Shown in pieces: positions 11,847 through 33,498 of a stretch of DNA of 34,866 nt. How positions within the stretch are numbered: position 1 is the first letter of the stretch; every line of letters starts with the position of its first letter. Origin of the DNA: an uncultured Clostridia bacterium (GTDB taxonomy: Bacteria > Bacillota > Clostridia > Christensenellales > UBA1242); NCBI GenBank assembly GCA_947589615.1, contig CANQBU010000001.1, positions 1 to 34,866 of the forward strand, written 5' to 3'. The notes beneath the pieces are model-generated. The model saw only the letters and a list, made by a program, of their open reading frames with translations. It made no database searches and had not been told where the DNA came from. Both the position numbers and the translations under genes were made by a program.

Positions 11847-11858
11847 GAGGCATGAAAA

Positions 11859-18549: not shown

Positions 18550-20586
18550 ATGAGTCAACTTGCATTGAAAAGTATTAATGAATTATTGGGAAAGAATTAT
18601 TTTATTCCCAGTTATCAAAGAGGTTATAGGTGGGAAAAACGTCAAGTTGTCGATTTGCTTGATGACTTGTATTCTTTCATAGGCGACAAAAATAAAGGAG
18701 AAAATTCCTTTTATTGCCTTCAACCAATAGTGGTCAAGGAATGTGATAAGGAAATAGCAAGAGAAACAATAAATTTAAGCAATCTAACTGATGATTGCAT
18801 AGGACCCTGGTTTGAGGTGATAGATGGTCAGCAGCGTCTTACCACATTATATTTGCTTTTTAAATATTTGATGGAAAGTAATGAATTTTGTGATATGGTA
18901 AGAGAGTATGGTGACCTTTATAAAATATTTTACCAGACGCAACATGGCTACAATGAATGTATAGAGAAGCCTCAAATTCCTCGAAGCGAAACTCCCAATG
19001 ATTTTTATATTACAAGGGCGTATGAGGCGATAAAAAATTGGTTTGAATCTTTCAGCGAAAGTAAACAAAAAGAGCATGTTAAATCCTTGTTTAAGACCTT
19101 TTTGTTAAACAATAGCGAATCGTCATCAATTATAAAATGCGGCTATGCACAGGTTATTTGGTATGAAGTGGATAAAGATGTAGACCCGATAAAAACTTTC
19201 ACTCGCCTAAACATAGGGAAAATTCCTCTAAGGAATGCTGAACTTATTAAGGCGTTGTTTTTGCAGAAAAGGGGTAAATCAGTTTCTTCTGATGTTCAAC
19301 AGATAAACATTGCAAAGGAATGGGACCAAATTGAAGCAAGTTTGCAAGAACCTCGATTTTGGGCATTTTTGAACAAGGATTTAAGGGAAATTCCAAATCA
19401 CATTGAGTTTATCTTTGATGTTATATTTGCAGTTGAGGGAAACAAGATAAAGGACGGGCTTAAAGATATAGAATATAAAAAGCTTAGAGAACAAAATCTC
19501 GGCTTAAGCGATAAAAAACTGATGCAAGAAGCAGAAAATTTGGCGGAGGGCAAGTTCAATGATATGTTTGGGACAGACGAGTTTGCATCTTTCAGATTTT
19601 TCAGCACAAAGTTTAAAAATCCAACGCGTCAAGATATTGAAAGCGAATGGAATATGGTGCGTGAATATTATGAGACCTTTTCGGAGTGGCAAAATAATCC
19701 GCTTTGGTATCACTATATTGGCTTTTTAATTTATTGCGATGAGCCAATTATAGATATCTTTAATCTTTACAAGGGCAAAACAAAAAATGAGTTTAAACAA
19801 AGTTTAATAAACAGAATAAAGGAGCGACTGGCGGTTTGGGTTAAAAGCTTAAATGACGGCTTATATGAACTTACAAATGAAAAAGGCGAGCCAGTAATTT
19901 ATAGTAATAAAAATAGAAAAAAATTAAGACAAATTTTGGTGTTATACAATATTGAATACATAATTCAAAAGAATGCACAATTAAAAAAGAGTTATGTTAT
20001 TTTCCCTTTCGACCTATTTAAGGAGCAGCAGTGGGATATAGAGCATGTTGACTCTTTTACAACAAACCCTCTTACTGATAAATGTCAACAAAAGGAATGG
20101 GTGGCTACAAGTTTAAATGGTCTTAAAGACTTTGGGATAAATTATACCGAGACAACGAGAATTTTAAAAGAAGAGAAGGAAAAACTTGAAAGCTTTTTGT
20201 CTGAGGATAATTCCTCAGTAAAAATTGAAGATGTAATGTGGATCTTGTCCAAATTGGCAGATGAATATCTGCCTACCGAAGAGGTCGAAAAGGATATCAA
20301 AAATTCAATCGGCAATCTTACACTACTTAATTCAAGTATAAACAGAAGTTACGGGAATGACATTTTCCCTTTAAAGAAAAGAACTATCACCCAAAAAGAT
20401 GCCGATGGAGAATTCATTCCTATTTGCACTAAAAATGTGTTTTTGAAAAATTTTATCGATGTTAACAATTCTCCAATTTCGTGGAGCGAACGGGATATGA
20501 AATGTTATCAGAAAAATATTATAGAGGTTATCTATAAGTTCTTAAAAAAGGATGGAGAAGGGGGAAATAATGGCAGAGAAATTTAG
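18550..20586 (+). CDS. DUF262 + DUF1524 protein (GmrSD / BrxU-like type IV restriction enzyme family)
   Basis: 678 aa. N-terminal DUF262 / ParB-like motifs IPSYQRGYRWEKRQVVDLLDDL and DGQQRLTTLYLL. C-terminal His-Me finger (DUF1524) motifs WDIEHVDS ... IGNLTLLNSSINRSYGNDIFPLKK. SD AAAGGAGAG. Confidence 0.85.
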   Translation: MSQLALKSINELLGKNYFIPSYQRGYRWEKRQVVDLLDDLYSFIGDKNKGENSFYCLQPIVVKECDKEIARETINLSNLTDDCIGPWFEVIDGQQRLTTLYLLFKYLMESNEFCDMVREYGDLYKIFYQTQHGYNECIEKPQIPRSETPNDFYITRAYEAIKNWFESFSESKQKEHVKSLFKTFLLNNSESSSIIKCGYAQVIWYEVDKDVDPIKTFTRLNIGKIPLRNAELIKALFLQKRGKSVSSDVQQINIAKEWDQIEASLQEPRFWAFLNKDLREIPNHIEFIFDVIFAVEGNKIKDGLKDIEYKKLREQNLGLSDKKLMQEAENLAEGKFNDMFGTDEFASFRFFSTKFKNPTRQDIESEWNMVREYYETFSEWQNNPLWYHYIGFLIYCDEPIIDIFNLYKGKTKNEFKQSLINRIKERLAVWVKSLNDGLYELTNEKGEPVIYSNKNRKKLRQILVLYNIEYIIQKNAQLKKSYVIFPFDLFKEQQWDIEHVDSFTTNPLTDKCQQKEWVATSLNGLKDFGINYTETTRILKEEKEKLESFLSEDNSSVKIEDVMWILSKLADEYLPTEEVEKDIKNSIGNLTLLNSSINRSYGNDIFPLKKRTITQKDADGEFIPICTKNVFLKNFIDVNNSPISWSERDMKCYQKNIIEVIYKFLKKDGEGGNNGREI

Positions 20587-22900
20587 TTTTAAGGATTTGC
20601 TTACACGGCCTATTCAATTGGTCGGCGGGGGAAGCGTAAAAATCGATAAAATCTCAATACCACTTTTGCAACGGGATTATGCTCAAGGCAGAATGTTCTT
20701 TAATGAAAAAACGGGAGAATACAAGTTTAATCTTGCCGGCGAGAAATTTATTGAAGAAATTTTTTCCACTCTTTTATCTTCCGATGACAAGGGGCTTGAA
20801 CTTGACTTTATTTATGGTTCAATTGATGAGGAAAGACCTGAGAAAGATGATGAAAATAAGGGGAATACAAATATTTTAAGCCCCCTTGATGGTCAGCAGC
20901 GCTTGACTACTCTTTTCCTCTTGTATTGGTTTATTGGCGGGGCAGAATTAGATGAAGAAGGCAAGTCAGATTTGTTGACCTCGCTTGAAAAATTTACATA
21001 TTTAACACGGACAAGCTCCAATGTCTTTTGTGCAAGCCTTGTGGAAGAATTGAAGCATTCAAACATTGATTTTAAAGGTGCAGAAGACATCAGTTTGCAA
21101 ATTAAAAACCTCTCATGGTTTCATGATGTATATACTTTAGATCCTACTATTGTGTCAATGCTTAATATGCTAAATAAAATACAGTCGCTGTACAGGGAAA
21201 GAGAATGCCAAAATGTATTTGGCAATTTGGAGAGAATGAAATTTTACATTCTGCCCCTAAAAAATTTTGAACTTACTGAAGAGCTTTATGTAAAAATGAA
21301 TGCTCGCGGCAAGCAATTGACGGATTTTGAAAATTTTAAAGCCGATTTACAAAAGTGGCTGCAATCACTAAACCTTCCAGAGAAGGAGTATCGAAAAAAT
21401 ACCACATTGCCTTATGACATGTATTTTATAAACAAAATGGATAATGAATGGCTACAGTGTCTATGGAAGGCAGGGAATGGAAGCGAAAATAGAAATTTCG
21501 ATTCTCTATTTTTAAAATTCTTCTATGATTATCTTTTAAATTATCATATTTTAGATTATAAAGATAATTATCAAAAACTGGACAAACAAAGTGACTATAA
21601 TGCTTTAAATGAAACTCGATATTTGGGCTTTTCAATCTTTGAAAAATTTTTAAAAAAAGGCTCGATGCTTGATAAGATTGAAATTGTGCTAGACAATATT
21701 TCCCAGCACTATGAAGATATTCTTAAGGCTTGCCAACCGGTGTGGAGCAGTGGAAAAATTCTATTTAATATATTTTCGCAAGATATGCAGTTAAAGGACA
21801 GGACAATATTTTGCGCTTTGGTTTTATATTTGACAAAGTATGGGTATGACGAAAAGGGCTTAAAAAAATGGATGCGTGTCGTATGGAATATTGCTGAAAA
21901 TGCCAACATCGATAGCGTTGCTGTAGTTGTCGGCGTAAACAAATTATTTGCAGAACTTGTGGAATATGCGGGCGATATTTATGCAAATCTTGCCGACGAA
22001 ACAAATATAATAACTTCAACTCAGGCAGAAGAGTTTGTTGCTGAAGAAAGATTAAAAGCCGGGCTTATAATGACTGACCCCGCTTGGGAGGAAAGTCTTA
22101 TCATCGCTGAAGGAAATTCCTTTTTTAGAGGCAATATAAGTTTTCTTTTGCCAGAAGAGGTAGAGGCGAAAGATATTGACAGGGGAGAATTTGAACACCG
22201 CTATGAAATGGCAAAAATATTCTTTGATGAAAAGGGTATCTGTGATGCTTATAGCAAGAATGGTCATCTTTTCCTCAGAGCGCTATTAAGCAGATATGAC
22301 GATTTGGGCAAAATAAAATATCATATCGCGGATAAAGATGAAAGAGAGCATTCTTTAAAACACATGCTTTCATCGGACAAAGTGGTGCGCAGGGCAATTT
22401 ACGAATGGTTTTCACTTGAGGACGAAGATAAAATTCATTCTAAACTTGTCGAAGAAGTGGCAAAGGCTTCTCCTATCAAAGATGTCTTTGACCGAAAACT
22501 CCACGAAGAACTTTACAAGTCAACAAATCTAATAAACTGGATGCAGGAGACTGGGGCAATAAGATATAAAGACGATTGCATTTCAAAGCCAAACAGCCCT
22601 ATTTATCAAATTTATGTTAGGGGTTACAGAAACGAGATAATTAAACGCTTAATTGAAGAGGGTTGGAAATGTAACAATCAGTGCAGCATAAATGAAGGGA
22701 AGGATAAAATTCCATACTTTTGGCCAAGCAGAGAAATTAATGTAATAAAAGAGGAAGCCGATAGGCAAATTATTTGCACATTTGATAGGGAAAATATCAG
22801 AATCGGCGAAGGTCAATATAATTATATAGATAATGTTAAAAGCAAAGATGATATCGATGCTTGCATCGAATGGATAAAAGAGCAAGAAAAGAAGTTGTAA
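20570..22900 (+). CDS. Second DUF262 domain protein with a long C-terminal region of unknown function
   Basis: I place the start at MAEKFSF (20570), with GAAGGGGGA upstream, overlapping the previous gene by 17 nt. Motifs IPLLQRDYAQG and DGQQRLTTLFLLYW. I could not recognise an E-H ... GNL-LL ... N nuclease motif with an intact His. Confidence 0.78.
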   Translation: MAEKFSFKDLLTRPIQLVGGGSVKIDKISIPLLQRDYAQGRMFFNEKTGEYKFNLAGEKFIEEIFSTLLSSDDKGLELDFIYGSIDEERPEKDDENKGNTNILSPLDGQQRLTTLFLLYWFIGGAELDEEGKSDLLTSLEKFTYLTRTSSNVFCASLVEELKHSNIDFKGAEDISLQIKNLSWFHDVYTLDPTIVSMLNMLNKIQSLYRERECQNVFGNLERMKFYILPLKNFELTEELYVKMNARGKQLTDFENFKADLQKWLQSLNLPEKEYRKNTTLPYDMYFINKMDNEWLQCLWKAGNGSENRNFDSLFLKFFYDYLLNYHILDYKDNYQKLDKQSDYNALNETRYLGFSIFEKFLKKGSMLDKIEIVLDNISQHYEDILKACQPVWSSGKILFNIFSQDMQLKDRTIFCALVLYLTKYGYDEKGLKKWMRVVWNIAENANIDSVAVVVGVNKLFAELVEYAGDIYANLADETNIITSTQAEEFVAEERLKAGLIMTDPAWEESLIIAEGNSFFRGNISFLLPEEVEAKDIDRGEFEHRYEMAKIFFDEKGICDAYSKNGHLFLRALLSRYDDLGKIKYHIADKDEREHSLKHMLSSDKVVRRAIYEWFSLEDEDKIHSKLVEEVAKASPIKDVFDRKLHEELYKSTNLINWMQETGAIRYKDDCISKPNSPIYQIYVRGYRNEIIKRLIEEGWKCNNQCSINEGKDKIPYFWPSREINVIKEEADRQIICTFDRENIRIGEGQYNYIDNVKSKDDIDACIEWIKEQEKKL

Positions 22901-23006: not shown

Positions 23007-23978
23007 TTAATTTTGAATATATAATTTTTCTTGTTTTAAGAGTGGATAAGATTTTAAACTGTCATTATTCAAATCTTCTTTATTCATATCCACTCCTACA
23101 ATTTGAGAGTTGTTGTAGGTGGTGTAATAGTAAATGCATTTGTCGGTGTTGCAGCATGAAGAATAAATGGTATGCTCAAAGCCCTTCTCAACCTTGCAAC
23201 AGCCTTTTTGTTGTTCGACAGAGGTTAAGATGTGGAAAAACTGACTGACGCTTTCCACTTCGCTGCTTCCTTGTAAAGAGTTTAATTTTGTAAATGCCGC
23301 CTTTACAAATCGCGATGCCGAAGACAGGTCTCCGGGCAACCCTATTCCGCCCATGCCTCGACTATATGGCGTAAGATTTAAGTTTTCGCAAAATCTGTTA
23401 ATTGGCTCATTGCGTGAAACATTCATGTAATTGCTAAGATGGATAAGATGATAGTCAAAAGTCGGGTTGTTTGTGAGAATTCCTACGGGGTTATCATAAA
23501 CTTTAAGCCCCTCGCTTAAAGGCTCAACTACGATGCAATCTTTTTTGTCGGCAATAATCCAGTGCAAAGGTGAGTGAGGTAATTCATTTGAAAAATCTTC
23601 ATCACAAATATTTAAGTTTGAAAGGATTTTCCGTGCCTCGCTTACATCTTTACATTTTGCCAAAATGTAAGGGATAAACTCAAATGGTGCGACATTATCT
23701 TTTGAGCGAATTTTCTTTGAATAAAAGGCGTTCTTGGGGAAATTTAATCCCGCGATGCTAAGCCCTTTTTCGTTTGTTGCGTCATAATAAAGAGGGTAGT
23801 CATTTTGCACAAATGCCATGCCAATCATCGCATAGTGCTTGTCACATTTACGCATATGACGAAAATCGAACGGGAAGTTTCGAGGGGTGATTGTCACCGT
23901 CTCATTGTATGAAAACTCATAGTCCAAATTTCGTCCAAAATAAAAATCTTTACTAAAAAAAGTTGCTGCTGTGCACAT
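23007..23978 (-). CDS. Choloylglycine hydrolase / bile salt hydrolase family (Ntn linear amide C-N hydrolase)
   Basis: 323 aa. Begins MCTAATF (nucleophile Cys2), followed by FGRNLDYEFSYNETVTITPRNFPF, which is typical of the BSH/PVA family. SD AAGGAG. Confidence 0.88.
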   Translation of the reverse strand: MCTAATFFSKDFYFGRNLDYEFSYNETVTITPRNFPFDFRHMRKCDKHYAMIGMAFVQNDYPLYYDATNEKGLSIAGLNFPKNAFYSKKIRSKDNVAPFEFIPYILAKCKDVSEARKILSNLNICDEDFSNELPHSPLHWIIADKKDCIVVEPLSEGLKVYDNPVGILTNNPTFDYHLIHLSNYMNVSRNEPINRFCENLNLTPYSRGMGGIGLPGDLSSASRFVKAAFTKLNSLQGSSEVESVSQFFHILTSVEQQKGCCKVEKGFEHTIYSSCCNTDKCIYYYTTYNNSQIVGVDMNKEDLNNDSLKSYPLLKQEKLYIQN

Positions 23979-24079
23979 AAAAAACTCCTTATATAAAATT
24001 ATAGCAAATCATTTTCAAAAATGAAAACAAATTGCAAACAAATCTACACTTGAAATTAAAAGTTGTCGGAACAAAGGGT

Positions 24080-24108
24080 TTAACAAAATTTGCAGTTTTA
24101 CATAAAAT
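24080..24108 (+). promoter_or_regulatory. Candidate promoter for the collagen-like gene
   Basis: TTAACA (24080-24085), 17-nt spacer, TAAAAT (24103-24108). It lies 22 nt upstream of the ATG at 24131 and just before the SD GAGGAG. Confidence 0.5.
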
Positions 24109-24130
24109 GTATTCTGTGAGGAGAAAACAA

Positions 24131-24715
24131 ATGATTTGCAATAACTTTCAAAACAACTGGCAATGTCAAAATCTTTATCCTTCTCCTACAGGTATATGTC
24201 CTCCTCAGACACCTACTGGAATAAGCATTGTAGGACCTACTGGACCTACAGGTGCAACTGGTGCGACAGGTGCTACAGGACCAACTGGTGCTACAGGAGC
24301 AACTGGTGCCACAGGTGCAACAGGGAGTTCTGCTTTAAGTTCGATTGCCTTTTTCACCGCGCCAAGCGTAACAAACGCAGAGCCAACACTTTTGCTTGAA
24401 AACTCATTTCCTATAGGTCAGACAGATATAACATTTGCTGGAGGGAATGGGGTTAATTTGACGACAGGCACATATATCATGAGATTTGGCTCGACTGTGA
24501 CAAGCACAAACGGGACTTTGCCTACCATATCCATTTCGGTTGATAATGTGGTCGAAAGCGGAACGATAAGAACGGGGGTTGGATTTGGCTCTGCAAATCT
24601 GACCGGTGACGCATTAATAACCATAAACACTCCTTCGCTTTTGACATTCAATGTAACGGTCGCTCCCGAACTAACTTACGATGAAAACTTTTTAATAATT
24701 ACAAAATTGGAATAA
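24131..24715 (+). CDS. Collagen-like triple-helix repeat protein (BclA-like) with a Cys-rich N-terminus and a beta-rich C-terminal domain
   Basis: I place the start at MICNNFQ (24131), with GTGAGGAGA upstream; the ORF-track TTG start at 24032 has no SD. Ten uninterrupted G-x-T triplets (GPTGPTGATGATGATGPTGATGATGATGAT), followed by a roughly 125-aa Thr/Ser/Gly/Asn-rich domain. Confidence 0.82.
   Translation: MICNNFQNNWQCQNLYPSPTGICPPQTPTGISIVGPTGPTGATGATGATGPTGATGATGATGATGSSALSSIAFFTAPSVTNAEPTLLLENSFPIGQTDITFAGGNGVNLTTGTYIMRFGSTVTSTNGTLPTISISVDNVVESGTIRTGVGFGSANLTGDALITINTPSLLTFNVTVAPELTYDENFLIITKLE
24233..24322 (+). repeat. GXT collagen-like coding microrepeat (10 triplets of 9 nt each)
   Basis: ggacctact ggacctaca ggtgcaact ggtgcgaca ggtgctaca ggaccaact ggtgctaca ggagcaact ggtgccaca ggtgcaaca. 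This stretch is locally GC-rich compared with its surroundings. Confidence 0.9.
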
Positions 24716-25132: not shown

Positions 25133-25163
25133 TTGACAAATTGGGGGCGTAAAATGATATACT
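25133..25163 (+). promoter_or_regulatory. Candidate promoter for the SPFH / ESCRT-III-like / AAA+ / TIR operon
   Basis: TTGACA (25133-25138), then a 19-nt spacer containing a G5 run, then TATACT (25158-25163) preceded by TGa (extended -10). An AT-rich UP-like tract lies upstream. About 30 nt upstream of the ATG at 25195. The spacer is longer than optimal. Confidence 0.45.
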
Positions 25164-25194
25164 AAATATGTATGAGATGCTAGGAGGAATATTG

Positions 25195-26106
25195 ATGTTT
25201 CAAAAAAAGAAAAGGCAGGTAATTAAGTTTGAGCAAAACTTATGCCATGCAAAAGTTGATGACAATGATATTTTGTTTGTCCGCGTTTCCGACCAAATCA
25301 CAGATAAAGATGCGTTATTGGAAGTCCCATTAACCCATATTGCGTATGTGATAAAGGGTGGCGGATATGGCAAAGTGTATAAGAGCGGAACATATCCCGT
25401 TTTTGAGGATAACAAGGAAGTTAAAAATTGGCAACAGGGAATTTCTGTTGAAATAATTTACATGCCAAAAGACCCAAATGTTCCAATCAAATGGGGGACA
25501 AACGAAAAGATAAAGTATCGCGATGAGGTAAGCGGAAAGGTTGTGGGAGTTGCCGCGCATGGTGTATTCGATGTCTCAATTTCAAATCCCGAACAATTTT
25601 ACAGAAAGGTTGTTGGGGCAAGGCGGGAATTCAGCCTCAGAGAATTTCAAGACAGATTTAGTGCCAATGTTTTAAGTGAGTTCACCGCAATATTTTTTCA
25701 AACGATTGATGAACTTAAATTGACAAGTGACAAATTTGATGCAAATAAGAAAAGCATTCAGGAAAAAACGGGGAGACTGCTAAACAGAATATTTGAAGAT
25801 GAATGGGGAGTAAGTTTAAATAATTTCATCATTCAATACATAGGCGTTTCTGATATGGAGGTGGCAACTCGTGAAGAGGAAAAGCCTATTGAAAAACAAG
25901 AAGAGAAGCCAGTTCAAGCAAGATTTTGCCCATACTGCGGGGCACAGGTTCGTGAAGATGATGTCTTTTGCTCAAAGTGCGGAAAGAAATTGGAGAAAGA
26001 CAGCATAACTTGCCCATCATGTGGCAAAAGCAATAATATTTATGCCCAATTCTGCGTATATTGCGGCAAAAAAATAAGCGAGGGGAATCATGTGGAAAAA
26101 GAATAA
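25195..26106 (+). CDS. SPFH / Band_7_1 (YdjI-like) domain protein fused to a C-terminal double zinc ribbon
   Basis: I place the start at MFQKKKRQ (25195), with TAGGAGGA upstream. The N-terminal domain matches the Band_7_1 pattern (...VIKGGGYGKVYKSGTYPVF..., IKWGTNEKIKYRDEVSGKVVGVAAHGVFDVSISNPEQFYRKVVG). After an EEKP-rich linker come two C-x2-C...C-x2-C ribbons (CPYCG..CSKCG and CPSCG..CVYCG). Confidence 0.68.
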   Translation: MFQKKKRQVIKFEQNLCHAKVDDNDILFVRVSDQITDKDALLEVPLTHIAYVIKGGGYGKVYKSGTYPVFEDNKEVKNWQQGISVEIIYMPKDPNVPIKWGTNEKIKYRDEVSGKVVGVAAHGVFDVSISNPEQFYRKVVGARREFSLREFQDRFSANVLSEFTAIFFQTIDELKLTSDKFDANKKSIQEKTGRLLNRIFEDEWGVSLNNFIIQYIGVSDMEVATREEEKPIEKQEEKPVQARFCPYCGAQVREDDVFCSKCGKKLEKDSITCPSCGKSNNIYAQFCVYCGKKISEGNHVEKE

Positions 26107-26407
26107 TGACAAAGGTTTAAATGACAGAAACTTGATTGAAGAATGCGAAAAGGCAATAGACACTTTAATAATTCTCGGCGAGGCAGACGATGAACTTGTT
26201 TCAAATTTGCGAGTTATTAAAGAAAAAGTCAAATATCTTGTTCCAAGCAATGATGATAAGATTTACGAATTTGACAGGAGAATTAAAAATCTTATTGACG
26301 ACATGCGAATAGCGCTTGTCAAGGCGGACAGAGAGTCATTGAAGAAAATTAAACTGATTTTGGCGGATTTGAGGCTTGCAATAGTAGAGCGAAATTCAAG
26401 GATTTAA
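26090..26407 (+). CDS. Small (105 aa) predicted all-helical protein of unknown function
   Basis: The ATG overlaps the previous gene by 17 nt, with GAGGGGA upstream. Heptad-like charged/hydrophobic pattern. No family recognised. Confidence 0.55.
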   Translation: MWKKNNDKGLNDRNLIEECEKAIDTLIILGEADDELVSNLRVIKEKVKYLVPSNDDKIYEFDRRIKNLIDDMRIALVKADRESLKKIKLILADLRLAIVERNSRI

Positions 26408-26417
26408 AGGTGAAGTT

Positions 26418-27008
26418 ATGTGGTTTTTTAAAAGTAAATATGAAAAGTTATCTCGAGAAGAAGTGGTCGATGCGATTTGCAAACTTGAAAGTGAGACAAA
26501 AAGTATTGAAGAAGGGTTGACCTCAAAGCAGGAAGAGATAGACGAACTTATGGAAAAAGGGAGGACAGAAAAGAATAAAGAAGTCAAACTTTTCTATGCC
26601 AAAAAGATAAATGCACTTAAAGCGGAAAGAGAACAAAGTGTTCAAAGGGCATTGTATCTTATGTATAATGTTCAACTTATGAACAAACTTAAAACCTCAA
26701 TAGATGACAATCAATTCTTTAAAACCTCTTCAAAAATTCCTCTTAATAAGATGCTGGGCGACCAAAAAGCACTTGCAAAATTTTTAAACAAAACGCTGGG
26801 GACAAGGACAAAGGCGGAAGATGTGCTTACGTCAGCAGATGAAGTTTTCAAAACGCTTGAAGAGTCATACGATAAAAATGAAAGCATTTATGGGGTCAAT
26901 GACCAAGATGACGCACTGCTTTCTATGTTTGAGACAGAGGAGCAGTTAAACGAAGAAGAAGAGATGTTTACAGAAAGTGAACAAAAAGCCGGCAGAGGCG
27001 AAAATTAA
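26418..27008 (+). CDS. ESCRT-III / Snf7-like (PspA-Snf7 superfamily) coiled-coil protein, paralog 1
   Basis: 196 aa. The N-terminus MWFFKSKY resembles the MWSSLFGW membrane-insertion motif of yeast Snf7. The helical hairpin region aligns by eye with Snf7 (AICKLESE...KGRTEKNKEVKLFYAKKINALKAEREQ versus AIVRLREH...KGNKVMAKNALKKKKTIEQ). Acidic C-terminal tail. Fold assignment not verified. Confidence 0.55.
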   Translation: MWFFKSKYEKLSREEVVDAICKLESETKSIEEGLTSKQEEIDELMEKGRTEKNKEVKLFYAKKINALKAEREQSVQRALYLMYNVQLMNKLKTSIDDNQFFKTSSKIPLNKMLGDQKALAKFLNKTLGTRTKAEDVLTSADEVFKTLEESYDKNESIYGVNDQDDALLSMFETEEQLNEEEEMFTESEQKAGRGEN

Positions 27009-27022
27009 AAGGAGAAAATTTT

Positions 27023-27580
27023 ATGTCAGCAAATAAAGAAATTGAAAAAAGAATGTTAATTAAGAGAACGATTTCATCAATGGAAAAACAAATCCAAAGA
27101 CTTGAAAATCAAAAGAAAACCTATATTGATGCGGGCAGACAGGCAAAGCAAAAAGGGTTAACAGCACAATATAACCTTGCTTTATCAGGGCTTAGAATGA
27201 CGATAAGCCAGCAGCGTCGAGTTTATGAAATGAAACTCAATTTTGAGATAACTTCGCAAATGAAGGATATGGCAAAGATGACCACCGATTTCCTTTCGGG
27301 AATGAGTTCTTTAAGTAAAGATATGATGAAACTCACAAAAGAGTCGGAGTTTAACAAAGTCCAGAAGCAATTCTCTGAAGCGATGGTTGGAATGGAAGTT
27401 CAAACTGAAAGAATGGAGGATTTCCTTGAAGAAACTCAGTCAACCTTTTCAAGCAACCTCAATAATGAAGAGGAGAGAAGCGAACTTGATGCCATGATGA
27501 CAAACGAGGCGGCAATCGGAACGGGAGTCGATGGCGAGATTGAAAAAGAACTTGAAGAACTTAAGAAAAAAATGTTTTAA
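27023..27580 (+). CDS. ESCRT-III / CHMP2(Vps2)-like coiled-coil protein, paralog 2, with a MIM1-like C-terminal helix
   Basis: 185 aa. By-eye parallels to CHMP2A: QIQRLENQKKT versus RERQKLETQEKK; AKQKGLTAQYNLALSGLRMTISQQRR versus AKQGQMDAVRIMAKDLVRTRR; QKQFSEAMVGMEVQTERMEDFLEE versus MMEFERQAEIMDMKEEMMNDAIDD; terminal EIEKELEELKKKMF versus DLEERLKNLRRD. SD AAAGGAG. Confidence 0.6.
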   Translation: MSANKEIEKRMLIKRTISSMEKQIQRLENQKKTYIDAGRQAKQKGLTAQYNLALSGLRMTISQQRRVYEMKLNFEITSQMKDMAKMTTDFLSGMSSLSKDMMKLTKESEFNKVQKQFSEAMVGMEVQTERMEDFLEETQSTFSSNLNNEEERSELDAMMTNEAAIGTGVDGEIEKELEELKKKMF

Positions 27581-27594
27581 TTTAAAGGAGAACT

Positions 27595-28908
27595 ATGCCT
27601 GATATCAGTTTTATGAATGAAATGTATGAAATTTATTATCGCAAAGCAAAGGAGTGCTATGACAGAAAGGACTTAATGCTTGCAAAGCGATATTATTTTC
27701 TTGCAGCAGAACAAATGTTAAAAATGGCTCAAAACAGCGAGAAACAACTCCAAAAGGCAAGATTCAGTCGGGCTAAAAGCCTTATAGATATGGCGGAGAG
27801 TATTCAAGCGGGAAAGAGAAAAATAGCAAAAGATGAGCCACAGGAAGAAGAGGTCAGCGTTTCACAGAATGAAAAAATATCTCTTGAAGAGGCACTTTCA
27901 AGACTTGCAAGGCTTGAAGGGCTTGAAAAAGTAAAAAGACAGGTTTGCGATTGGATTGACCAAATCAAAGTTTTTCAGATGAGGAAGGAAAGAGGAATGT
28001 CCGTTCCTGACATTTCCTATCACATGGTGTTCACTGGTAATCCGGGGACTGGAAAAACCACGCTCGCAAGACTTATGGCACAAATCTATTGCGCGCTTGG
28101 GATTTTAAGCAATGGAAATCTTGTTGAAGTTGATAGAAGTGGACTGGTTGCGGGCTATATCGGTCAAACTGCCGTAAAAACAAAGGAAGCAATCAAAAAA
28201 GCATATGGCGGAGTGCTTTTTATTGATGAGGCATATTCGCTTGCAAACGGCAATACAAACGATTTTGGTCAGGAAGCAATCGAAGCAATTTTAAAGGAGA
28301 TGGAAGACAAGCGAGATGACCTTGTTGTAATTGTTGCGGGATATGACGAGCCGATGGAAAAGTTTATAGCTTCAAACCCAGGTTTAAAATCAAGATTTAA
28401 AAATTTCTTCCATTTTGATGATTATAATGGTGAGCAATTATTCAATATTTTCCAGAAATTCTGCGAAGAAAATGAATATAGCATTGACTATTCGGCGGCG
28501 GAAGTTTTGAAAGAATATTTCCAATATCTATATGACCACAGAGATAAAAATTTCGGCAATGCCAGAGATGTGAGAAATTTCTTTGAAAATGTTGTGACAA
28601 TTCAATCCAAGCGAGTTGTTAATCTGCCTCAGCCATCGAATGAGGATTTACAATTAATAAAAATCGAGGACTTGCCAAGCTATGTAGAAGAGTTATTGAG
28701 AAATCAAGAAAATGACTATGACAGTTACGATTTTGACGATGGCGAGCCAGAAGAGAATGATATTCCTGAAATTGAAACGCTAGATGGGATTGAAAACTCC
28801 GAAGAGAGGAGCGAGTTAGGAGAGAATGATGATAAAGAAGAAATAGACGAAAACAATAAAGAGACAAATAAGCAAACAGAGGACATTTCGACCAAAAACA
28901 AAAAATAA
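27595..28908 (+). CDS. AAA+ ATPase of the SpoVK/CbbX/EccA clade with a MIT-like (TPR-like helical) N-terminal domain and an acidic C-terminal tail
   Basis: 437 aa. Walker A GNPGTGKTT (28036-28062) and Walker B VLFIDEAYSL. Also VVIVAGYDEPMEKFIASNPGLKSRF. Near-collinear with B. subtilis SpoVK as I recall it (HMIFKGNPGTGKTTVAR...GGILFIDEAYSL...AGY...NPGLQSRF). N-terminus YRKAKECYDRKDLMLAKRYYFLAAEQMLKMAQ...RAKSLIDMAESIQ resembles the Vps4 MIT helices. Confidence 0.9.
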   Translation: MPDISFMNEMYEIYYRKAKECYDRKDLMLAKRYYFLAAEQMLKMAQNSEKQLQKARFSRAKSLIDMAESIQAGKRKIAKDEPQEEEVSVSQNEKISLEEALSRLARLEGLEKVKRQVCDWIDQIKVFQMRKERGMSVPDISYHMVFTGNPGTGKTTLARLMAQIYCALGILSNGNLVEVDRSGLVAGYIGQTAVKTKEAIKKAYGGVLFIDEAYSLANGNTNDFGQEAIEAILKEMEDKRDDLVVIVAGYDEPMEKFIASNPGLKSRFKNFFHFDDYNGEQLFNIFQKFCEENEYSIDYSAAEVLKEYFQYLYDHRDKNFGNARDVRNFFENVVTIQSKRVVNLPQPSNEDLQLIKIEDLPSYVEELLRNQENDYDSYDFDDGEPEENDIPEIETLDGIENSEERSELGENDDKEEIDENNKETNKQTEDISTKNKK

Positions 28909-28925
28909 TTTAAGGAAACCTAAAT

Positions 28926-31709
28926 ATGAAAGAAAGCACAAGATATTTGAGATGTAAAAACTGTGAAGGGGAAATGGATGTGCGTGAGGCAAAAAATGGG
29001 GTGCTAACCTGCCCATACTGCCGCACGATTGTTGTTTTGCCACGCAACGACTCATCTGATAAGACAAAAGCATATTTGAACAGCGGGAATCAAAACCTCG
29101 AATTGGGGCGATTTGATGAAGCTTACATAATGTTTGGAAAGGCGGTCGAAGAAAATGCGCAAGAGCCAGAAGGTTATTTCGGAATGGCACTTTCTAAGGC
29201 AAAAATCCAGTATTTAAAGGATTTGGTCAACAATAAACTTCAACCTATTTGCTTTGAGATAACTGAGAATAAATTCACCGATGATAAAAATTATCAAAAG
29301 GCGCTAGAACTTTCAAATCCCGATCAGAAGGAAATTTACGAGGAAAAAGGTTGTGCAATCGATAACATAAAAAGTAAATTTTTTCAGCTTAAAAGAAACA
29401 ATGTCGAGTATGACACATTTATATGCTGTAAGGTCACAAACGAAAATGGCGGAAACACGCAAGACAGCATGAATGCACTTAAAATTTATCATGAACTTAA
29501 AGATGCGGGATATAAGCCATTTTATTCGGAAGAGATTTTGAGGAATTTTGTGGGTGAAGACTATGAGGCAAATATTCTCTATGCCCTTTATTCAAGTGGA
29601 AGCATGCTTATGGTTTGCAGTGATGAGGAATATTTGCAAACAAAGTGGGTCAAAAATGAGTATACTCGCTTTATAACCTTACTCGAGCAAAAGGAAAAAC
29701 AAAGAGGAAGCATTGCATTTGTCTACAACGGCAAGCCTATTGAAGAATTTCCAGGCATTCAAGGCAAAGTTCAGGGGATAGATTTTTCAAAATTTAACGC
29801 ACTAAATCAAATAATTTCATTTGTAGAAAAATTTGCGGGGTCAAATAGATTTCTGGATTTTCAAAGAAAGGAATATGGCAAGAATAATGTTCAAAAGAAA
29901 AAGACTATAAAACGAGAAATTCAAAAACGCAATTTAAGTGTATCAGTAAGCGAAGCGGTCTCAATTTCAGACGAAGCAAAATTAAGGAATGCCCAAAAAC
30001 TGCTTGAGAAAGGGGATTTTGAAAATGTTTGCAATTTCTGCAATGAGATTTTAATGAGCAATAAATTCTACGGCAAAGCCTACTGGACATTGTTTTTGGC
30101 ACAAAATAAATGCAGAAGCAATGAGGAATTTATAAAGTCCACCACGCCAGTTGCAAACTTTTCTGACTTTGAGAAGGCAATCTCTGCAACAAGTGATAAA
30201 AGCGAGAGAGAAAAATATTATCAGTGCCTTAAAAATCGTATTCTTGAAAGTGGCGAGAAGGGGGATTTTGATGAATTTGTCGTTCTCCCTGAAGTAGAAG
30301 AGAAAGACCTGGCGGAAGCAATAGATAAAGTTTATGAAACTGCCAAAGAGCATGTCGATAAAGACCTTTTTGAAGCGGCAATTTCAGTGGAAAAGCACAC
30401 AAACAGATATGTAAGAATGAATCTTGGCTTTTTAAAACAATTGCCTATTGAGCAAAGAAAGCCATATTATGAGAATATTTTAAATGTCGATGCTGCAAAT
30501 CCCGAAGCACTATACGAAAATTTCAATATTGATAACAATCTATTAAGTGATGAGGCGGTTTTCGAATTTTACAGTGACAAGAAAAATCATGACACAATTG
30601 AAAACACATTATTTGCCTATGGCTTTAATAAATTTGCTTCCGATGACCTTAATAGAATTGTCCAAAATGGCGGCGACACAAAAAAGGGTTGCAGTATCTA
30701 TGACCTTATATTAAGTATGGTTCCAAAAGGCAAAAACAAAATTTTCGCCTACTATTTAAGCCAGGCAATAAGTTTCCTTTTTGCGGGAGAAAGGAAAAAA
30801 GGTCAATTTTATGTTGATTTCGAGCAACTTGAAAAATATAATAACGCTCTTATTTCAGTCGATCAATATAACTGCAATTGTTATGTAAATCGAATGCTTA
30901 TTGATAATAAGATAAAAAATCCGCTAGAACTTATGGACTGCCGGTCACTTTACGATTTTGCCGATTTCCGCCTTGCGGTCAACACATATGCCGAGCGTTA
31001 TCCAAATAAGACTAATGAATATATGCAATATGATGATGAACTCAAAGAGATAAAACAAATCCTTGCCACGCCAAAAATAAAACAGTATGTGCTTGACAAT
31101 TATGTCCCGAAAATGGAGTGGCTAAGTGGGAAGGCAAGGACGGACATTATTGAAATGCTGGACGGGAAAATGCAGAAGAGCGTAGGAAGTATACTCCGAA
31201 AAAATGAGTGCAAAGAATTAAAGGAACTTTGCAGTCTGCAAAAAGACGTCACAAAAGATGAAGACTTCGTTATGGCAAGAGATATTGCAAATGTGTTGTC
31301 AAGTCAAAAACTTCCTTCAAAAACACCTACAGAAACGGTTTCTTCACAGGCTGCCGCCCAAGCGGAAGAGGAGCCTGCACCTAAAGAAAGTGAGAGCCCA
31401 GATGAGGGGCAGACAAAAGATAAACAAGAAGTGCTAGAGCAAAAAGAGAGCGACAGGGAAATTAACGAAGTCACTCAAAATAATGAAGAGCAGAAAGAGG
31501 AAGAAAAAGAGGAAATAAGACTTGTAGATGAGTTAAATTCATTAAGCGAGCGCCAGCCTCAAGCGGCAAAAACAAATTATGAAACGCGAAGAAAAGAGGA
31601 AAGGCAGAGAATGAGAAAATTGACAATAAAAACAATATTATGGACCCTTTATGGCGTTGGACTCTTTTTCGCGATTGGAACACTTTTACTTTTTATTCTT
31701 TTAAAATAA
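28926..31709 (+). CDS. Tail-anchored multidomain protein: N-terminal zinc ribbon, TPR-like helices, TIR domain, long helical-repeat region, acidic low-complexity linker, C-terminal TM
   Basis: 927 aa. Zinc ribbon CKNC..x17..CPYC. TIR-like block at about residues 160-305 (nt 29403-29840): YDTFICCKV..., AGYKPFYSEEIL..G.DYEANILYALYSSGSMLMVCS...TKWVKNEYTRF, with the candidate catalytic Glu at 29658-29660. C-terminal TM ILWTLYGVGLFFAIGTLLLFILL (about 31632-31706). Confidence 0.78.
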   Translation: MKESTRYLRCKNCEGEMDVREAKNGVLTCPYCRTIVVLPRNDSSDKTKAYLNSGNQNLELGRFDEAYIMFGKAVEENAQEPEGYFGMALSKAKIQYLKDLVNNKLQPICFEITENKFTDDKNYQKALELSNPDQKEIYEEKGCAIDNIKSKFFQLKRNNVEYDTFICCKVTNENGGNTQDSMNALKIYHELKDAGYKPFYSEEILRNFVGEDYEANILYALYSSGSMLMVCSDEEYLQTKWVKNEYTRFITLLEQKEKQRGSIAFVYNGKPIEEFPGIQGKVQGIDFSKFNALNQIISFVEKFAGSNRFLDFQRKEYGKNNVQKKKTIKREIQKRNLSVSVSEAVSISDEAKLRNAQKLLEKGDFENVCNFCNEILMSNKFYGKAYWTLFLAQNKCRSNEEFIKSTTPVANFSDFEKAISATSDKSEREKYYQCLKNRILESGEKGDFDEFVVLPEVEEKDLAEAIDKVYETAKEHVDKDLFEAAISVEKHTNRYVRMNLGFLKQLPIEQRKPYYENILNVDAANPEALYENFNIDNNLLSDEAVFEFYSDKKNHDTIENTLFAYGFNKFASDDLNRIVQNGGDTKKGCSIYDLILSMVPKGKNKIFAYYLSQAISFLFAGERKKGQFYVDFEQLEKYNNALISVDQYNCNCYVNRMLIDNKIKNPLELMDCRSLYDFADFRLAVNTYAERYPNKTNEYMQYDDELKEIKQILATPKIKQYVLDNYVPKMEWLSGKARTDIIEMLDGKMQKSVGSILRKNECKELKELCSLQKDVTKDEDFVMARDIANVLSSQKLPSKTPTETVSSQAAAQAEEEPAPKESESPDEGQTKDKQEVLEQKESDREINEVTQNNEEQKEEEKEEIRLVDELNSLSERQPQAAKTNYETRRKEERQRMRKLTIKTILWTLYGVGLFFAIGTLLLFILLK

Positions 31710-31726
31710 ATTTTAACAAATTAAAT

Positions 31727-31764
31727 AAAAAAGCATATTGATTTTATCGTTAATATGCTTTTTT
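31727..31764. terminator. Bidirectional hairpin terminator between the TIR operon and the convergent ABC exporter
   Basis: aaaaaagcatatt (31727-31739) / aatatgctttttt (31752-31764): 13-bp AT-rich stem with a GC core and a 12-nt loop. Confidence 0.5.
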
Positions 31765-31839
31765 AATATGTAAAGTTATTATATTTTTTCGCCCTTTTTA
31801 TCGGCTATATAGAAAAATTATCTTTTCAGTTAAATTATG

Positions 31840-33498
31840 TTAAATATTTAAGATTTCATCTGCCACCGACTCGATTCTTTTGTCGTGAGAAACTACGATT
31901 ATAATTTTGCCGTTATTTTTTAAATGTGCAAGTTCGCTTAAGACTTTTTGCACGTTATTTTCATCTAGGTCGTTGGTTGGCTCATCAAACAGATATATGT
32001 CGGCATCACGCGAAAGGGTGCGGATAAAATCGATACGTTTTTTCTCGCCACCTGAGAGTTTGGAGCGGACATCTTTTCCCTCTTCTTCGCGCTTGATGAG
32101 TTTTTGCAAATCAAATTCTTTGACAAGTCGCTTGCCTTCATTGTTCAATTCTTGATTAGGGTAACTGAGGTTTTGTTCAATACTTCTGTCAAATAAAATC
32201 GAGTCTTGAAACATATATGAAATCTTATTTGTATAATCTTCAAGCGAGGAAAGGGGATAAACGCCGTTTATCAAGATTTGCCCATTTTCAATTTCTTTTA
32301 GACCGCAAATTGCATTCAAAAACGAAGTTTTTCCTCCTCCACTTTGCCCTGTCAAAAGGTATACTTTGCCGCTTTCGAAACAGCCTTGATATGAATTTTT
32401 GAATTTTCCGAAATTGACGTGAATGTCAAGCACTTCCATTTTAGAGATATGCTCATTTTCAAGTGCTTCTATCTTATGCGCATGGGCAAGTTTCAAGTTT
32501 TCTTTTGTCGGATTAAGCTTTTCGAGATTGCAGAGTTTAATTGCCGAAGATTGAATGTCGCCGATTTGCCACCCCCAGTTTTCTATTGTGGACTGAATAT
32601 CTGAAAAGATTGTAAAGATCATGCTTATTGTGGCGACGGCCTGTGCTGTTCCATTTCGCATAATGAAAAGCCAAATCGCTAAGCCGATAGACAGAAACTC
32701 AAAGCCGATAATTGTAATCCAATACCAGAACCCTATTTTTGCCCGCGTCTTATGATACTTATAAAAAACTTTGTTTAAAAAGCCGAGTTGCCTTGTTTCC
32801 TCCAAATTGGAGCGTAGCATAGTGATAAGCGGAAGGTTTTGAGCGGTTGTCAAAATTTGATTGTTGACCTTTGCACTTGTGCCTTCGATTTTTTCCACAA
32901 CGGGATTTTGCAATTTCAATCTGATAAAAATAATTAGGAATATGCCCAAAATCATGCCTATTCCGATAAGCCCAACCACCCAATCTTGGGCGAATAAGAC
33001 GCCGACATTGAGGGCAATCGCAACTAAGTTTGTCACGATGTTCCAGCAGAAAGGTTCGACAAGATTGTAAACGCACTCAGTCGCATTTTGCACAATGTAG
33101 TTCACTTCGCCCAGCGTCATACCATAATCTGAATTTTTTCTTTTTTCAAGAAGAAGGTCTTGAGCCTTGATGTTGACGACGCAAATCATTTTCCTTGCAA
33201 AGATATCTATAGAATAGTAATGTATCATTCCCAGAATCCATAGCCCGAAATTAATTGCAAGAAGGATTGCGGTGATTGAAGCCGTAGGCAGGGAAGAGAA
33301 GTCTATAAACAAAAGTTTTACCGACTCGCCCGCAAGACTTGCAAGCACAAGGGGAGGGACAACGTTGAATAACATCCACGCCAATGCTGAAACCCATGAA
33401 AAAGCAAAAAGACTTATGAAGAGAATTCTGTCTTTTGTCTCCATTAATTTCCATAATAATTTTAAACTTTTAAAAATTCCAACTTTTTCTTTTGTCAT
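31840..33498 (-). CDS. Fused permease/ATPase ABC exporter (type I exporter half-transporter)
   Basis: 552 aa. N-terminal region with about 6 TM segments. NBD with Walker A GQSGGGKTS, signature LSGGEKKR, Walker B IYLFDEP and H-loop VSHD. No clear SD upstream of the ATG. Confidence 0.88.
   Translation of the reverse strand: MTKEKVGIFKSLKLLWKLMETKDRILFISLFAFSWVSALAWMLFNVVPPLVLASLAGESVKLLFIDFSSLPTASITAILLAINFGLWILGMIHYYSIDIFARKMICVVNIKAQDLLLEKRKNSDYGMTLGEVNYIVQNATECVYNLVEPFCWNIVTNLVAIALNVGVLFAQDWVVGLIGIGMILGIFLIIFIRLKLQNPVVEKIEGTSAKVNNQILTTAQNLPLITMLRSNLEETRQLGFLNKVFYKYHKTRAKIGFWYWITIIGFEFLSIGLAIWLFIMRNGTAQAVATISMIFTIFSDIQSTIENWGWQIGDIQSSAIKLCNLEKLNPTKENLKLAHAHKIEALENEHISKMEVLDIHVNFGKFKNSYQGCFESGKVYLLTGQSGGGKTSFLNAICGLKEIENGQILINGVYPLSSLEDYTNKISYMFQDSILFDRSIEQNLSYPNQELNNEGKRLVKEFDLQKLIKREEEGKDVRSKLSGGEKKRIDFIRTLSRDADIYLFDEPTNDLDENNVQKVLSELAHLKNNGKIIIVVSHDKRIESVADEILNI

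Follow-up and report, generated by a model that had tools for sequence, protein, structure and literature searches.

The window analysed here is a stretch of 34,866 nucleotides from an uncultured Clostridia bacterium of the Christensenellales (assembly GCA_947589615.1, contig CANQBU010000001.1, positions 1 to 34,866 of the forward strand), and our subject is an operon within it in which genes of an ESCRT-III-like (endosomal sorting complex that is required for transport) system appear to be coupled to a gene for a TIR protein. Six co-directional, tightly packed open reading frames (ORFs) occupy positions 25195-31709 of the + strand, with junctions of -17, +10, +14, +14 and +17 nt in order. Every start is preceded at 5-10 nt by a purine-rich Shine-Dalgarno (SD) sequence (GGAGG for gene 1, GAGGGG for gene 2, AAAGGTGA for gene 3, AAAGGAG for genes 4 and 5, and the weaker AAGGAA for gene 6). 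Two ATG starts are possible for gene 1, at 25195 and 25168, of which the former is favored because it has an SD sequence and because homologues align from it.

A promoter-like site recognized by eye lies upstream (25133-25163, + strand), with a -35 element that matches the consensus (TTGACA, 25133-25138) and an extended -10 element (TGaTATACT, 25155-25163). The spacer of 19 nt is non-optimal, which is why a consensus promoter scan with spacers of 16-18 nt omits the site. Downstream, a terminator-like hairpin without assigned strand (31726-31765; 17-bp stem, dG -16.5 kcal/mol, z = -5.3 against shuffles, of which 0 of 200 were equally stable) is flanked by an A-run and a U-run; gene 6 lies on one side of it and a convergent ABC-transporter gene (31840-33498, - strand) on the other. 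It was overlooked by a terminator scanner because the stem has few G-C pairs. An Rfam search of the window gave no matches and thus no riboswitch or leader in the 480-nt spacer 5' of the operon. An earlier sequence-only reading of this DNA had described the same six genes, junctions, SD sequences, promoter-like site at 25133 and downstream hairpin, and all of them were re-found at their coordinates.

A genome scan located the five-gene core (genes 1 to 5) in 47 species-level loci, nearly all of them in metagenome-assembled genomes (MAGs) of Christensenellales-type gut Clostridia and one in an Erysipelotrichaceae genome. The order SPFH protein, small protein, gene 3, gene 4, AAA+ ATPase is retained in the great majority of these loci, the exceptions being the rearranged L050-L052, L048, and a few loci that have no upstream SPFH or small-protein homologue, and core order and strand recur down to 38% identity. 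Identity is 60-75% for genes 3-5 in most loci and about 35-57% for genes 1 and 2. The cluster is therefore a genuine, conserved unit whose arrangement, with its order recurring in 47 species-level loci, goes far beyond chance. The opposite view, that unrelated coiled-coil proteins, a generic AAA+ protein, and a stray TIR gene happen to be neighbors, could draw on the fact that gene 3, gene 2, and the N-domain of the ATPase have no significant database matches and that coiled coils yield spurious fold matches. It is effectively refuted by the order and strand kept in the 47 loci, and it also has to contend with a TIR gene linked to the core in 35 of them, with the same theme repeated in unrelated lineages, and with junctions that overlap or measure at most 17 nt; we find it scarcely credible. 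Synteny in other genomes, on which the sequence-only reading had staked its proposal, is thus strong both for the core and for the linkage to TIR.

Gene 4 (27023-27580, + strand, 185 aa) is assigned to the Snf7/CHMP type of the ESCRT-III superfamily, an assignment that holds on family profile and predicted fold. The window protein itself scores below the threshold of Pfam Snf7 (PF03357; 20.1 bits vs 27.3, E=5e-4, covering 6-153 of 171), and 13 of 84 diverse members of its family match that model, the best at E=1.4e-9. A diverse family profile (A6) matches human CHMP2A (7zcg_B, E=1.2e-4) over residues 10-143, the whole core; a narrow profile (A1) had found no matches among PDB sequences. The AlphaFold2 (AF2) model has helices at 2-44, 47-104, 107-141, 150-164, and 169-184 (mean local confidence, pLDDT, of 65), which is the helix pattern of ESCRT-III, and its top Foldseek matches were CHMP1B, CHMP2A/3, CdvB, Asgard ESCRT-IIIB, and Vipp1, with probabilities of 0.93-1.0 at E-values of only 0.02-0.25. 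Its relatives form 311 clusters when grouped at 90% identity, and 375 representatives remain at 50% (E<=1e-3); none of them has a name. Neither PspA_IM30 (PF04012) nor any family of the known Psp partners, PspB/C/F or YdjG/YdjH, was matched by the six products in Pfam and NCBIfam at E<=1.

The C-terminal helix of gene 4, …EIEKELEELKKKMF (nt 27524-27577), is invariant in the family, as is the very C-terminus, …EIEKELEELKKKM, with the residues …D-G-E-I-E-K-E-L-E-E-L-K-K. The consensus of MIM1, the type 1 MIT-interacting motif, is (D/E)xxLxxRLxxL(K/R), and the resemblance of the helix to it is a lead to a putative recognition site for an ATPase.

Gene 3 (26418-27008, + strand, 196 aa) encodes a highly conserved helical-hairpin protein with the motifs MWxFKSKY at its N-terminus and NESIYG…LLAMFE at its C-terminus. 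In the AF2 model, a hairpin of residues 13-50 and 54-96 has a pLDDT of 77-90 and the remainder is below 50. Its Foldseek list is enriched for CHMP1B, Vipp1, and PspA at probabilities of 0.3-0.57 and E>0.2, mixed with SNARE and BAR proteins, and searches of Pfam and of PDB sequences returned only noise (BBE, viral fusion heptads). Comparison of gene 3 with gene 4 by hhalign, with narrow and broad profiles, gave non-significant probabilities of 0.25% and 6.5%, although co-linear over 144 columns. The sequence-only reading had seen two Snf7/CHMP-like proteins here: gene 4 stands by profile and fold, and for gene 3, which has no sequence signal and a low-probability fold enrichment, an ESCRT-III-like nature is only possible. 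The protein is as conserved as gene 4 (identity is 60-75% for the majority of Christensenellales-type species and falls to 32-35% in L050-L052, which are distant variants), and its 433 clusters of relatives are likewise all without a name. In one MAG (L017:3556-4155), an otherwise conserved gene 3 homologue carries an in-frame stop, which could reflect pseudogenization, recoding, or misassembly.

The two proteins are preceded by gene 1 (25195-26106, + strand, 303 aa), which is predicted to encode a soluble SPFH protein similar to YdjI. It combines Band_7_1 at residues 39-220 (E=1.3e-15, 58 bits vs a cutoff of 24) with a C-terminal double zinc ribbon (DZR E=7.6e-12, with Zn_Ribbon_1 and Zn_ribbon_3 also exceeding their Pfam cutoffs; CxxC pairs at nt 25927-25980 and 26011-26064), and no transmembrane (TM) segment was predicted. 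These features are those of a YdjI-type SPFH protein, and Pfam confirms the domain call that had been made by eye. A gene 1 homologue is kept 5' of the rest of the core in most loci. Gene 2 (26090-26407, + strand, 105 aa), which overlaps gene 1 by 17 nt, is a small family-specific protein recognized by synteny: among 10 family members, there was no consistent Pfam, NCBIfam, or PADLOC match, and the syntenic homologues share about 35-57% identity in diverged loci and 70-89% in the closest. No TM segment was predicted in the core proteins of the window (genes 1-5); some gene 2 homologues of 140-148 aa have a predicted N-terminal one.

Gene 5 (27595-28908, + strand, 437 aa) encodes an AAA+ ATPase (Pfam AAA E=6e-19, AAA_lid_6 E=2e-17) with intact Walker A (GNPGTGKT, 28036-28059) and Walker B (VLFIDE, 28213-28230) motifs, a conserved helical N-terminal domain of about 75 aa (nt 27595-27820), and an acidic low-complexity tail. 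Its scores against the NCBIfam equivalogs are all below the cutoffs (spore_V_K 286.7 vs 422.95, EccA 242 vs 466.65, CbbX 240 vs 459.25), which places it by sequence in the SpoVK/CbbX/EccA clade yet as an orthologue of none of the three. There is no match to Vps4_C, with AAA_lid_6 found instead, so that it falls outside the classical Vps4 clade. Most relatives (among them L003:10572-12587, with about 35 further loci) are tandem AAA+ proteins of about 700 aa, whose module 2 has a Walker A motif without a canonical Walker B of the form hhhhDE. Both motifs together are kept only in module 1, and it is this module alone that the clade of the window retains in its single-module form.

The sequence-only reading had called the ATPase SpoVK/CbbX-type, which AAA_lid_6, NCBIfam, and the Walker motifs uphold, and its N-terminus MIT-like. 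For the latter, among 27 family members Pfam MIT matched one (E=0.036) and TPR_8 ten, the MIT structure 2mpk in the PDB was hit at E=0.3, and hhalign against Vps4 MIT sequences gave a probability of 12%, with 16% for a reversed control. We do not adopt the MIT-like label because the profile comparison is no better than this control. The same N-domain is found on classical Vps4-like AAA proteins (E=4.5e-6 in L055, E=3.6e-19 in L056), and in both AAA+ clades the operons also encode a Snf7-like or an uncharacterized helical protein of about 190 aa. This recurrence on two AAA+ clades, each time with such a helical protein, is the best, if indirect, argument that the N-domain may be a polymer-recognition module.

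Gene 6 (28926-31709, + strand, 927 aa) encodes a tail-anchored protein with an N-terminal zinc ribbon (28953-29021), tetratricopeptide repeats (TPR), a TIR domain at about 29403-29840, and a long helical and acidic region, closed by one C-terminal TM helix (31647-31703), the only integral membrane component predicted in the operon. The TIR domain exceeds the Pfam threshold (TIR_2, E=1.3e-9, 39 bits vs a cutoff of 28), and a family profile matches the plant TIR protein RUN1 (6o0w, E=1.7e-3). As a single sequence against the PDB, the domain had given only a spurious toxin match, which was discarded. In the profile alignment, WVKNE of gene 6 lies over SRWCLDEL of RUN1, which contains the catalytic E100 (7s2z is the E100A mutant), and thereby points to Glu245 (codon 29658-29660, + strand; W241-x3-E245) as the predicted catalytic glutamate. 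The W and E of W-x3-E are invariant among 29 aligned TIR domains down to 28% identity. The motif was found in 33 of 36 matches to the TIR hidden Markov model (HMM), and the miss in L016 is a scan artefact, both residues being present in alignment A2. From this invariant residue and its alignment with RUN1 E100, the TIR domain is predicted to be catalytically intact. The architecture of gene 6, the TIR fold of 29403-29840, and the very glutamate codon had all been singled out before any search, and TIR_2, the RUN1 match, and the TM prediction bear them out. An exact-protein look-up of the gene 6 product found no record, and at E<=1 it matched no PADLOC model, those of ThsB and ThsA included.

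The TIR gene behaves differently from the core. Counting was done on stop-to-stop frames, since greedy ORF calling gave antisense artefacts by which some real genes were hidden. A ZnR-TPR-TIR gene (ZnR, zinc ribbon) on the same strand and within about 5 kb of gene 4 was detected by the family HMM in 32 of the 47 loci, and three more have divergent, Pfam-confirmed TIR_2 neighbors, giving 35 of 47; two of the loci without a TIR neighbor have contigs too short to judge. Its place varies (3' of the AAA+ gene, between gene 4 and the AAA+ gene, or upstream), it is sometimes duplicated, and outside the closest relatives of the window its identity is only 25-55%, against the 60-75% of genes 3-5 in most loci. 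About 10 informative loci have no TIR gene at all. TIR is accordingly a variable accessory of the core, and the sequence-only reading, which saw the set as hard-wired to TIR, was right about the linkage and not about fixed membership.

The TIR partners are for the most part membrane proteins, in which 1-6 TM helices accompany a cytoplasmic ZnR-TPR-TIR region, and a few are soluble; some carry 700-1100 extracytoplasmic residues or LRR_5/LRR_8 domains. Some have a topology like that of Toll-like receptors (TLRs), with a cytoplasmic ZnR-TPR-TIR region, one TM helix, and 200-1100 extracytoplasmic residues (L009:12572-17134, L011:15674-18763, L026:4218-7724, L048:8470-9978, and L050:3311-5464), and several proteins of this topology bear leucine-rich repeat (LRR) domains of the BspA type.

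In 16 loci, the AAA+ gene is followed by a gene for a trypsin-like protease, cytoplasmic and about 250 aa long; the window itself has none. What the accessory proteins share is a CxxC-x(8-30)-CxxC motif at the N-terminus, present in 42 of 43 of them and in 6 of 407 other neighborhood ORFs in the set scored (p=2e-51). The sequence-only reading had noted neither the protease as another recurrent partner, nor the motif common to the accessories, nor the tandem form of most AAA+ relatives. One partner with this tag (L017 c130) has no TIR domain altogether. In two loci that have no upstream SPFH gene (L013:13025-14695 and L024:4568-6493), the AAA+ gene is followed by one for a multi-zinc-ribbon protein of 556-641 aa.

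Elements of the same theme recur elsewhere. The gene 4 family domain also occurs in fusions with FtsK/HerA ATPases, as well as in fusions with a RuvB-like AAA+ module and a nuclease of the NERD or TnsA-like kind. A fusion of the RuvB-AAA+NERD kind (L056:8001-10403, also in L057 and L058) stands in an operon with a ZnR-trypsin, a Band_7_1 protein, a ZnR-TPR-TIR protein, a gene 4 paralogue ending in ISERLEKLK, and a classical AAA protein (AAA_lid_3), the one whose N-domain matches that of gene 5 at E=3.6e-19. Another bacterial contig (L055:181-6168) has genes for two AAA proteins of the classical kind, both with a helical N-domain, next to those for a helical protein of 193 aa, a RuvB-like AAA protein, and a ZnR-TPR-TIR-TM2 protein. 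Its AAA394 matches Vps4_C (23.8 bits vs the Pfam cutoff of 21.3), which is weak in the other AAA proteins of L055 and L056, and its TIR protein, encoded after the two classical AAA genes and the RuvB-like one, belongs to the TIR family of the window at 47% identity. In the fusions, the gene-4-like Snf7 domain is the N-terminal module of proteins of 430-940 aa (P0165, P0167, P0173, P0182, P0222, P0233, P0237, and P0255). A further ZnR-TPR-TIR homologue, again 47% identical, lies just 3' of a cluster resembling CBASS (cyclic oligonucleotide-based antiphage signaling system), with a SMODS/DncV-like cyclase and a SAVED effector, and of KilA-N genes (L053:1322-7027); the 7.5-kb contig holds no ESCRT-like core.

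The closest characterized analogue is the pspA-ydjGHI operon of Bacillus subtilis, in which the soluble SPFH zinc-finger protein YdjI and the membrane proteins YdjG and YdjH recruit PspA (Scholz et al. 2021; PMC8581546). As in the window, a gene of the ESCRT-III superfamily is accompanied by a soluble Band_7_1 SPFH protein with a C-terminal zinc finger (PMC8581546, PMC11237479), and YdjG, one of the membrane proteins that recruit the polymer, starts with zinc ribbons, as does the sole membrane protein of the window operon. The two differ in that the polymer protein here is of Snf7/CHMP type, with no PF04012 match, and not PspA; in that the window adds a second hairpin protein, a small protein, and a dedicated AAA+ ATPase, with no sigma-W-type regulation evident; and in that the places of YdjG and YdjH are taken by TIR, trypsin, or other zinc-ribbon-tagged proteins.

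Ravi et al. (2024; PMC11237479) describe PspA with Band-7 proteins (ydjFGHI) and, separately, some PspA or divergent Snf7 proteins with AAA+ proteins, one of which has two AAA domains, and they propose ATP-dependent, ESCRT-like membrane dynamics for these contexts. We considered their example Clo1100_0028 (AEY64321), with PspA and a tandem AAA protein, as the same system and rejected it: its operon (GntR, inactive-AAA+AAA, PspA, acetyltransferase) is a different one. Unlike their two-AAA protein, the tandem relatives here keep Walker B in the first AAA module. Nor do Ravi et al. describe the present operon or any Toll-type TIR, trypsin, or zinc-ribbon effector layer, and their "Tir" is the CesT/Tir chaperone.

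With the ESCRT-III-Vps4 systems of archaea and eukaryotes (Cdv, Asgard), the window shares a subunit of predicted Snf7/CHMP fold, in which a long hairpin is followed by α4-α5 and by a C-terminal helix of acidic/Leu/basic character, and a neighboring AAA+ ATPase with a small helical N-terminal domain. Proteins combining SPFH, coiled coil, and zinc ribbon also occur in some archaeal, Methanosarcinales-type ESCRT loci, whose ESCRT systems are believed to act in protein sorting (Makarova et al. 2024; PMC10936438). The window is bacterial, however, and without ESCRT-I/II, CdvA, or ubiquitin components; its ATPase, a member of the CbbX/SpoVK/EccA clade, lacks Vps4_C, and MIT homology is not demonstrable.

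The archaeal parallel raises the question of cargo sorting or vesicle biogenesis, in which the zinc ribbon would act as a tag by which proteins of the membrane and surface, as well as soluble enzymes, are sorted to ESCRT-III-like budding, for instance into the extracellular vesicles of a monoderm. Several tagged partners are indeed membrane proteins with large extracytoplasmic repeats (the TIR-LRR receptors and Flg_new/GLUG surface proteins), that of L017 has no TIR domain, and ESCRT-III of the Snf7 and not the PspA type, accompanied by a dedicated AAA+ ATPase, parallels the budding machinery of archaea and eukaryotes. We nevertheless regard sorting as improbable, for ESCRT-I/II and ubiquitin-like components are missing and the partners are mainly effector-type enzymes (TIR, trypsin) and not diverse cargo.

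With bacterial TIR defense systems (Thoeris ThsB/ThsA, TIR-STING CBASS, SpbK, and Rst_2TM_1TM_TIR), the operon shares a TIR_2 domain with the conserved catalytic glutamate, and its TIR partner evolves fast, is duplicated, and varies in position, with some relatives beside CBASS. It differs in having no SIR2, SLOG, Macro, or other known signal-responsive effector and no PADLOC match for the TIR protein, and in that no described TIR system has the ZnR-TPR-TIR-TM architecture or ESCRT-III-like, SPFH, and AAA+ partners. A precedent for immune enzymes on such polymers comes from the type II CBASS of Bacillus cereus, whose cyclase is tethered to PspA polymers that restrain its activation (Krüger et al. 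2024; PMC11153139). A membrane polymer of the ESCRT-III superfamily can therefore hold an immune enzyme and tune its activation, and the pspA-ydjGHI operon responds to phage infection (PMC11153139). That tethering differs from the present arrangement in being a covalent, Cap2-mediated conjugation to a housekeeping PspA, with no dedicated polymer, TIR, SPFH, or AAA+ protein encoded.

The combination of SPFH, AAA+, and trypsin-like protease in 16 related loci also recalls the SPFH cages. In these (HflK/C-FtsH, stomatin-NfeD), an SPFH scaffold is joined by an AAA+ enzyme, a serine protease, or both at the membrane. The protease of the present loci differs in being a cytoplasmic ZnR-trypsin and not a ClpP-like NfeD or FtsH, and the SPFH protein has no TM segment.

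By the sequence features searched for, the cluster falls outside Psp, Vps4-type ESCRT, the SpoVK, CbbX, and EccA equivalogs, and Thoeris, and it is therefore filed as a new combination and not as a member of those systems. The sequence-only reading had known of no described system of this kind, and in agreement with this, neither PADLOC nor the literature yielded a model or a published description of it. In PADLOC, gene 5 met only generic AAA matches (IetA, TRIP13) and genes 1-4 nothing specific.

We consider it very probable that the operon represents a real ESCRT-III-like/SPFH/AAA+ system, so far undescribed, whose function is coupled to TIR. Its core would consist of the gene 4 polymer protein, gene 3 as a co-evolving hairpin partner, gene 2 as a small adaptor, the gene 1 SPFH scaffold, and the AAA+ ATPase. 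The accessory layer would be made up of interchangeable proteins that begin with a zinc ribbon: TIR here, a trypsin-like protease elsewhere, and a NERD nuclease fusion in a distant lineage. On the cytoplasmic side of the membrane, genes 3 and 4 may form a polymer together with the SPFH scaffold, and the zinc ribbon would dock the TIR protein onto the assembly. TIR NADases are generally activated by oligomerization. Assembly at a membrane perturbed by phage entry or lysis, or by pore formers, could cluster the TIR domains, with NAD+ cleavage or a signal and abortive infection as the outcome, and the N-domain of the ATPase might bind the MIM-like helix of gene 4 and disassemble the polymer, which would either reset the system or restrain it. 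We infer in this way the path from membrane sensing to NAD+ depletion that the sequence-only reading had proposed.

A constant core whose TIR, peptidase, or nuclease effectors are swapped is what usually marks a conflict system. The exchange of TIR, protease, and nuclease here, together with fast evolution, favors a membrane-associated role in conflict or immunity, in which the docked effectors would be controlled by an ESCRT-III-like/SPFH polymer that the AAA+ ATPase recycles. That the system works as proposed is a real possibility and the reading we rate highest, which we put forward tentatively.

A number of points weigh against such a role. The MIT-like nature of the gene 5 N-domain shows no signal above control, and it is unproven, as are the MIM reading of the gene 4 helix and the docking role of the zinc ribbon; fold support for gene 3 as ESCRT-III-like is thin. 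PADLOC has no model that matches the system, and the composition of the operon is ordinary relative to its flanks. Among the loci that have no TIR gene, five are also without the protease, which suggests that the core can work without either. Core conservation of 60-75% across most species is unusually high, no gene 4 homologue occurs in phage, plasmid, or IMG/VR collections, which led us to reject a mobile-element origin, and in other genomes the operon stands among housekeeping genes (spo0A, dxs, ABC transporters). These last three observations resemble vertically inherited cell biology more than a mobile defense island.

The conserved and apparently vertical core in housekeeping contexts is what favors the main alternative, housekeeping maintenance of the envelope. 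The core would then be a Psp/YdjI-like machine for repair or remodeling (stress repair, division, or sporulation-related fission), and the ZnR-TIR proteins would be anchors or sensors, as YdjG and YdjH are, or NAD-linked regulators without any immunity. The high conservation of genes 3-5, the absence from mobile-element collections, and the persistence of the core without TIR in about 10 loci all fit. So do the stress-repair function of pspA-ydjGHI, which follows the same SPFH and zinc-ribbon logic (PMC8581546), and the fact that the core has no membrane anchor and the TIR protein has one. An invariant catalytic glutamate would, on the other hand, be superfluous in a pure anchor, some TIR partners are soluble, and members of the TIR family are also found beside CBASS. 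Accessories that are swapped, duplicated, and fast-evolving speak against maintenance as well, and a cytoplasmic protease and, in the related lineage, a NERD nuclease are hard to fit with membrane repair. On balance, we think envelope maintenance somewhat less likely than a role in conflict.

The flanks of the operon in the window add little to the case for defense. Two adjacent genes of the GmrSD family (18550-22900; 678 and 782 aa, overlapping by 35 nt; GmrSD_N in both, GmrSD_C in the first) lie upstream, as they do in the 95%-identical L001. The sequence-only reading had taken this context for a defense island, a notion that we dropped after the flanks had been annotated: the GmrSD pair alone is defense-like. 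An ABC transporter and a kinase are encoded in the remainder of the flanks, along with giant surface proteins, a bile-salt hydrolase, and a collagen-like protein. Two consecutive giant ORFs (5685-17027) encode repeat-rich surface proteins of 2053 aa, with Big_2 domains and a hyaluronate-lyase N-beta domain, and of 1722 aa, with 11 MBG and 3 YDG domains. Directly before the AT-rich 480-nt spacer of the operon lies a gene (24032-24715) for a protein of 227 aa whose GxT triplets repeat in collagen-like fashion (GPTGATGATG…), beside a choloylglycine (bile-salt) hydrolase gene (23007-23978, - strand); both are conserved in L001, and the hydrolase gene is consistent with a gut origin.

Reviews grant bacteria only the PspA/Vipp1 branch of ESCRT-III, without a Vps4-like recycler; in the words of one of 2025, a partner resembling Vps4 "appears absent in bacteria" (PMC7619361). 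The operon indicates that bacteria have proteins of predicted Snf7/CHMP type with a dedicated AAA+ ATPase and an SPFH protein, and with relatives in at least 47 species and two further lineages, the disassembly of bacterial ESCRT-III polymers becomes directly testable. A Snf7-type core that is coupled by way of a common zinc-ribbon tag to a TIR domain predicted to be catalytically intact, and in other loci to proteases and nucleases, has apparently not been described before. If functional, it would constitute a new class of membrane-linked signaling or immune system, and activation of TIR through the scaffold of a membrane-remodeling polymer would be a new mechanism.

The most far-reaching version, which is speculative but deserves consideration, is that a Snf7-type ESCRT-III machine with its own AAA+ recycler, Vps4_C-bearing in some lineages, is wired into an immune or cell-death pathway, with the polymer as a sensor of membrane breach that activates a zinc-ribbon-docked TIR NADase, trypsin-like protease, or NERD/TnsA nuclease. 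If true, this would be a prokaryotic counterpart of the interplay between ESCRT and cell death in eukaryotes, accompanied by a TLR-like receptor topology of extracytoplasmic LRR, TM helix, and cytoplasmic TIR. The hosts are abundant gut commensals of the Christensenellales, and a role of the system in phage resistance, envelope stress, or vesicles would bear on the biology of the microbiome.

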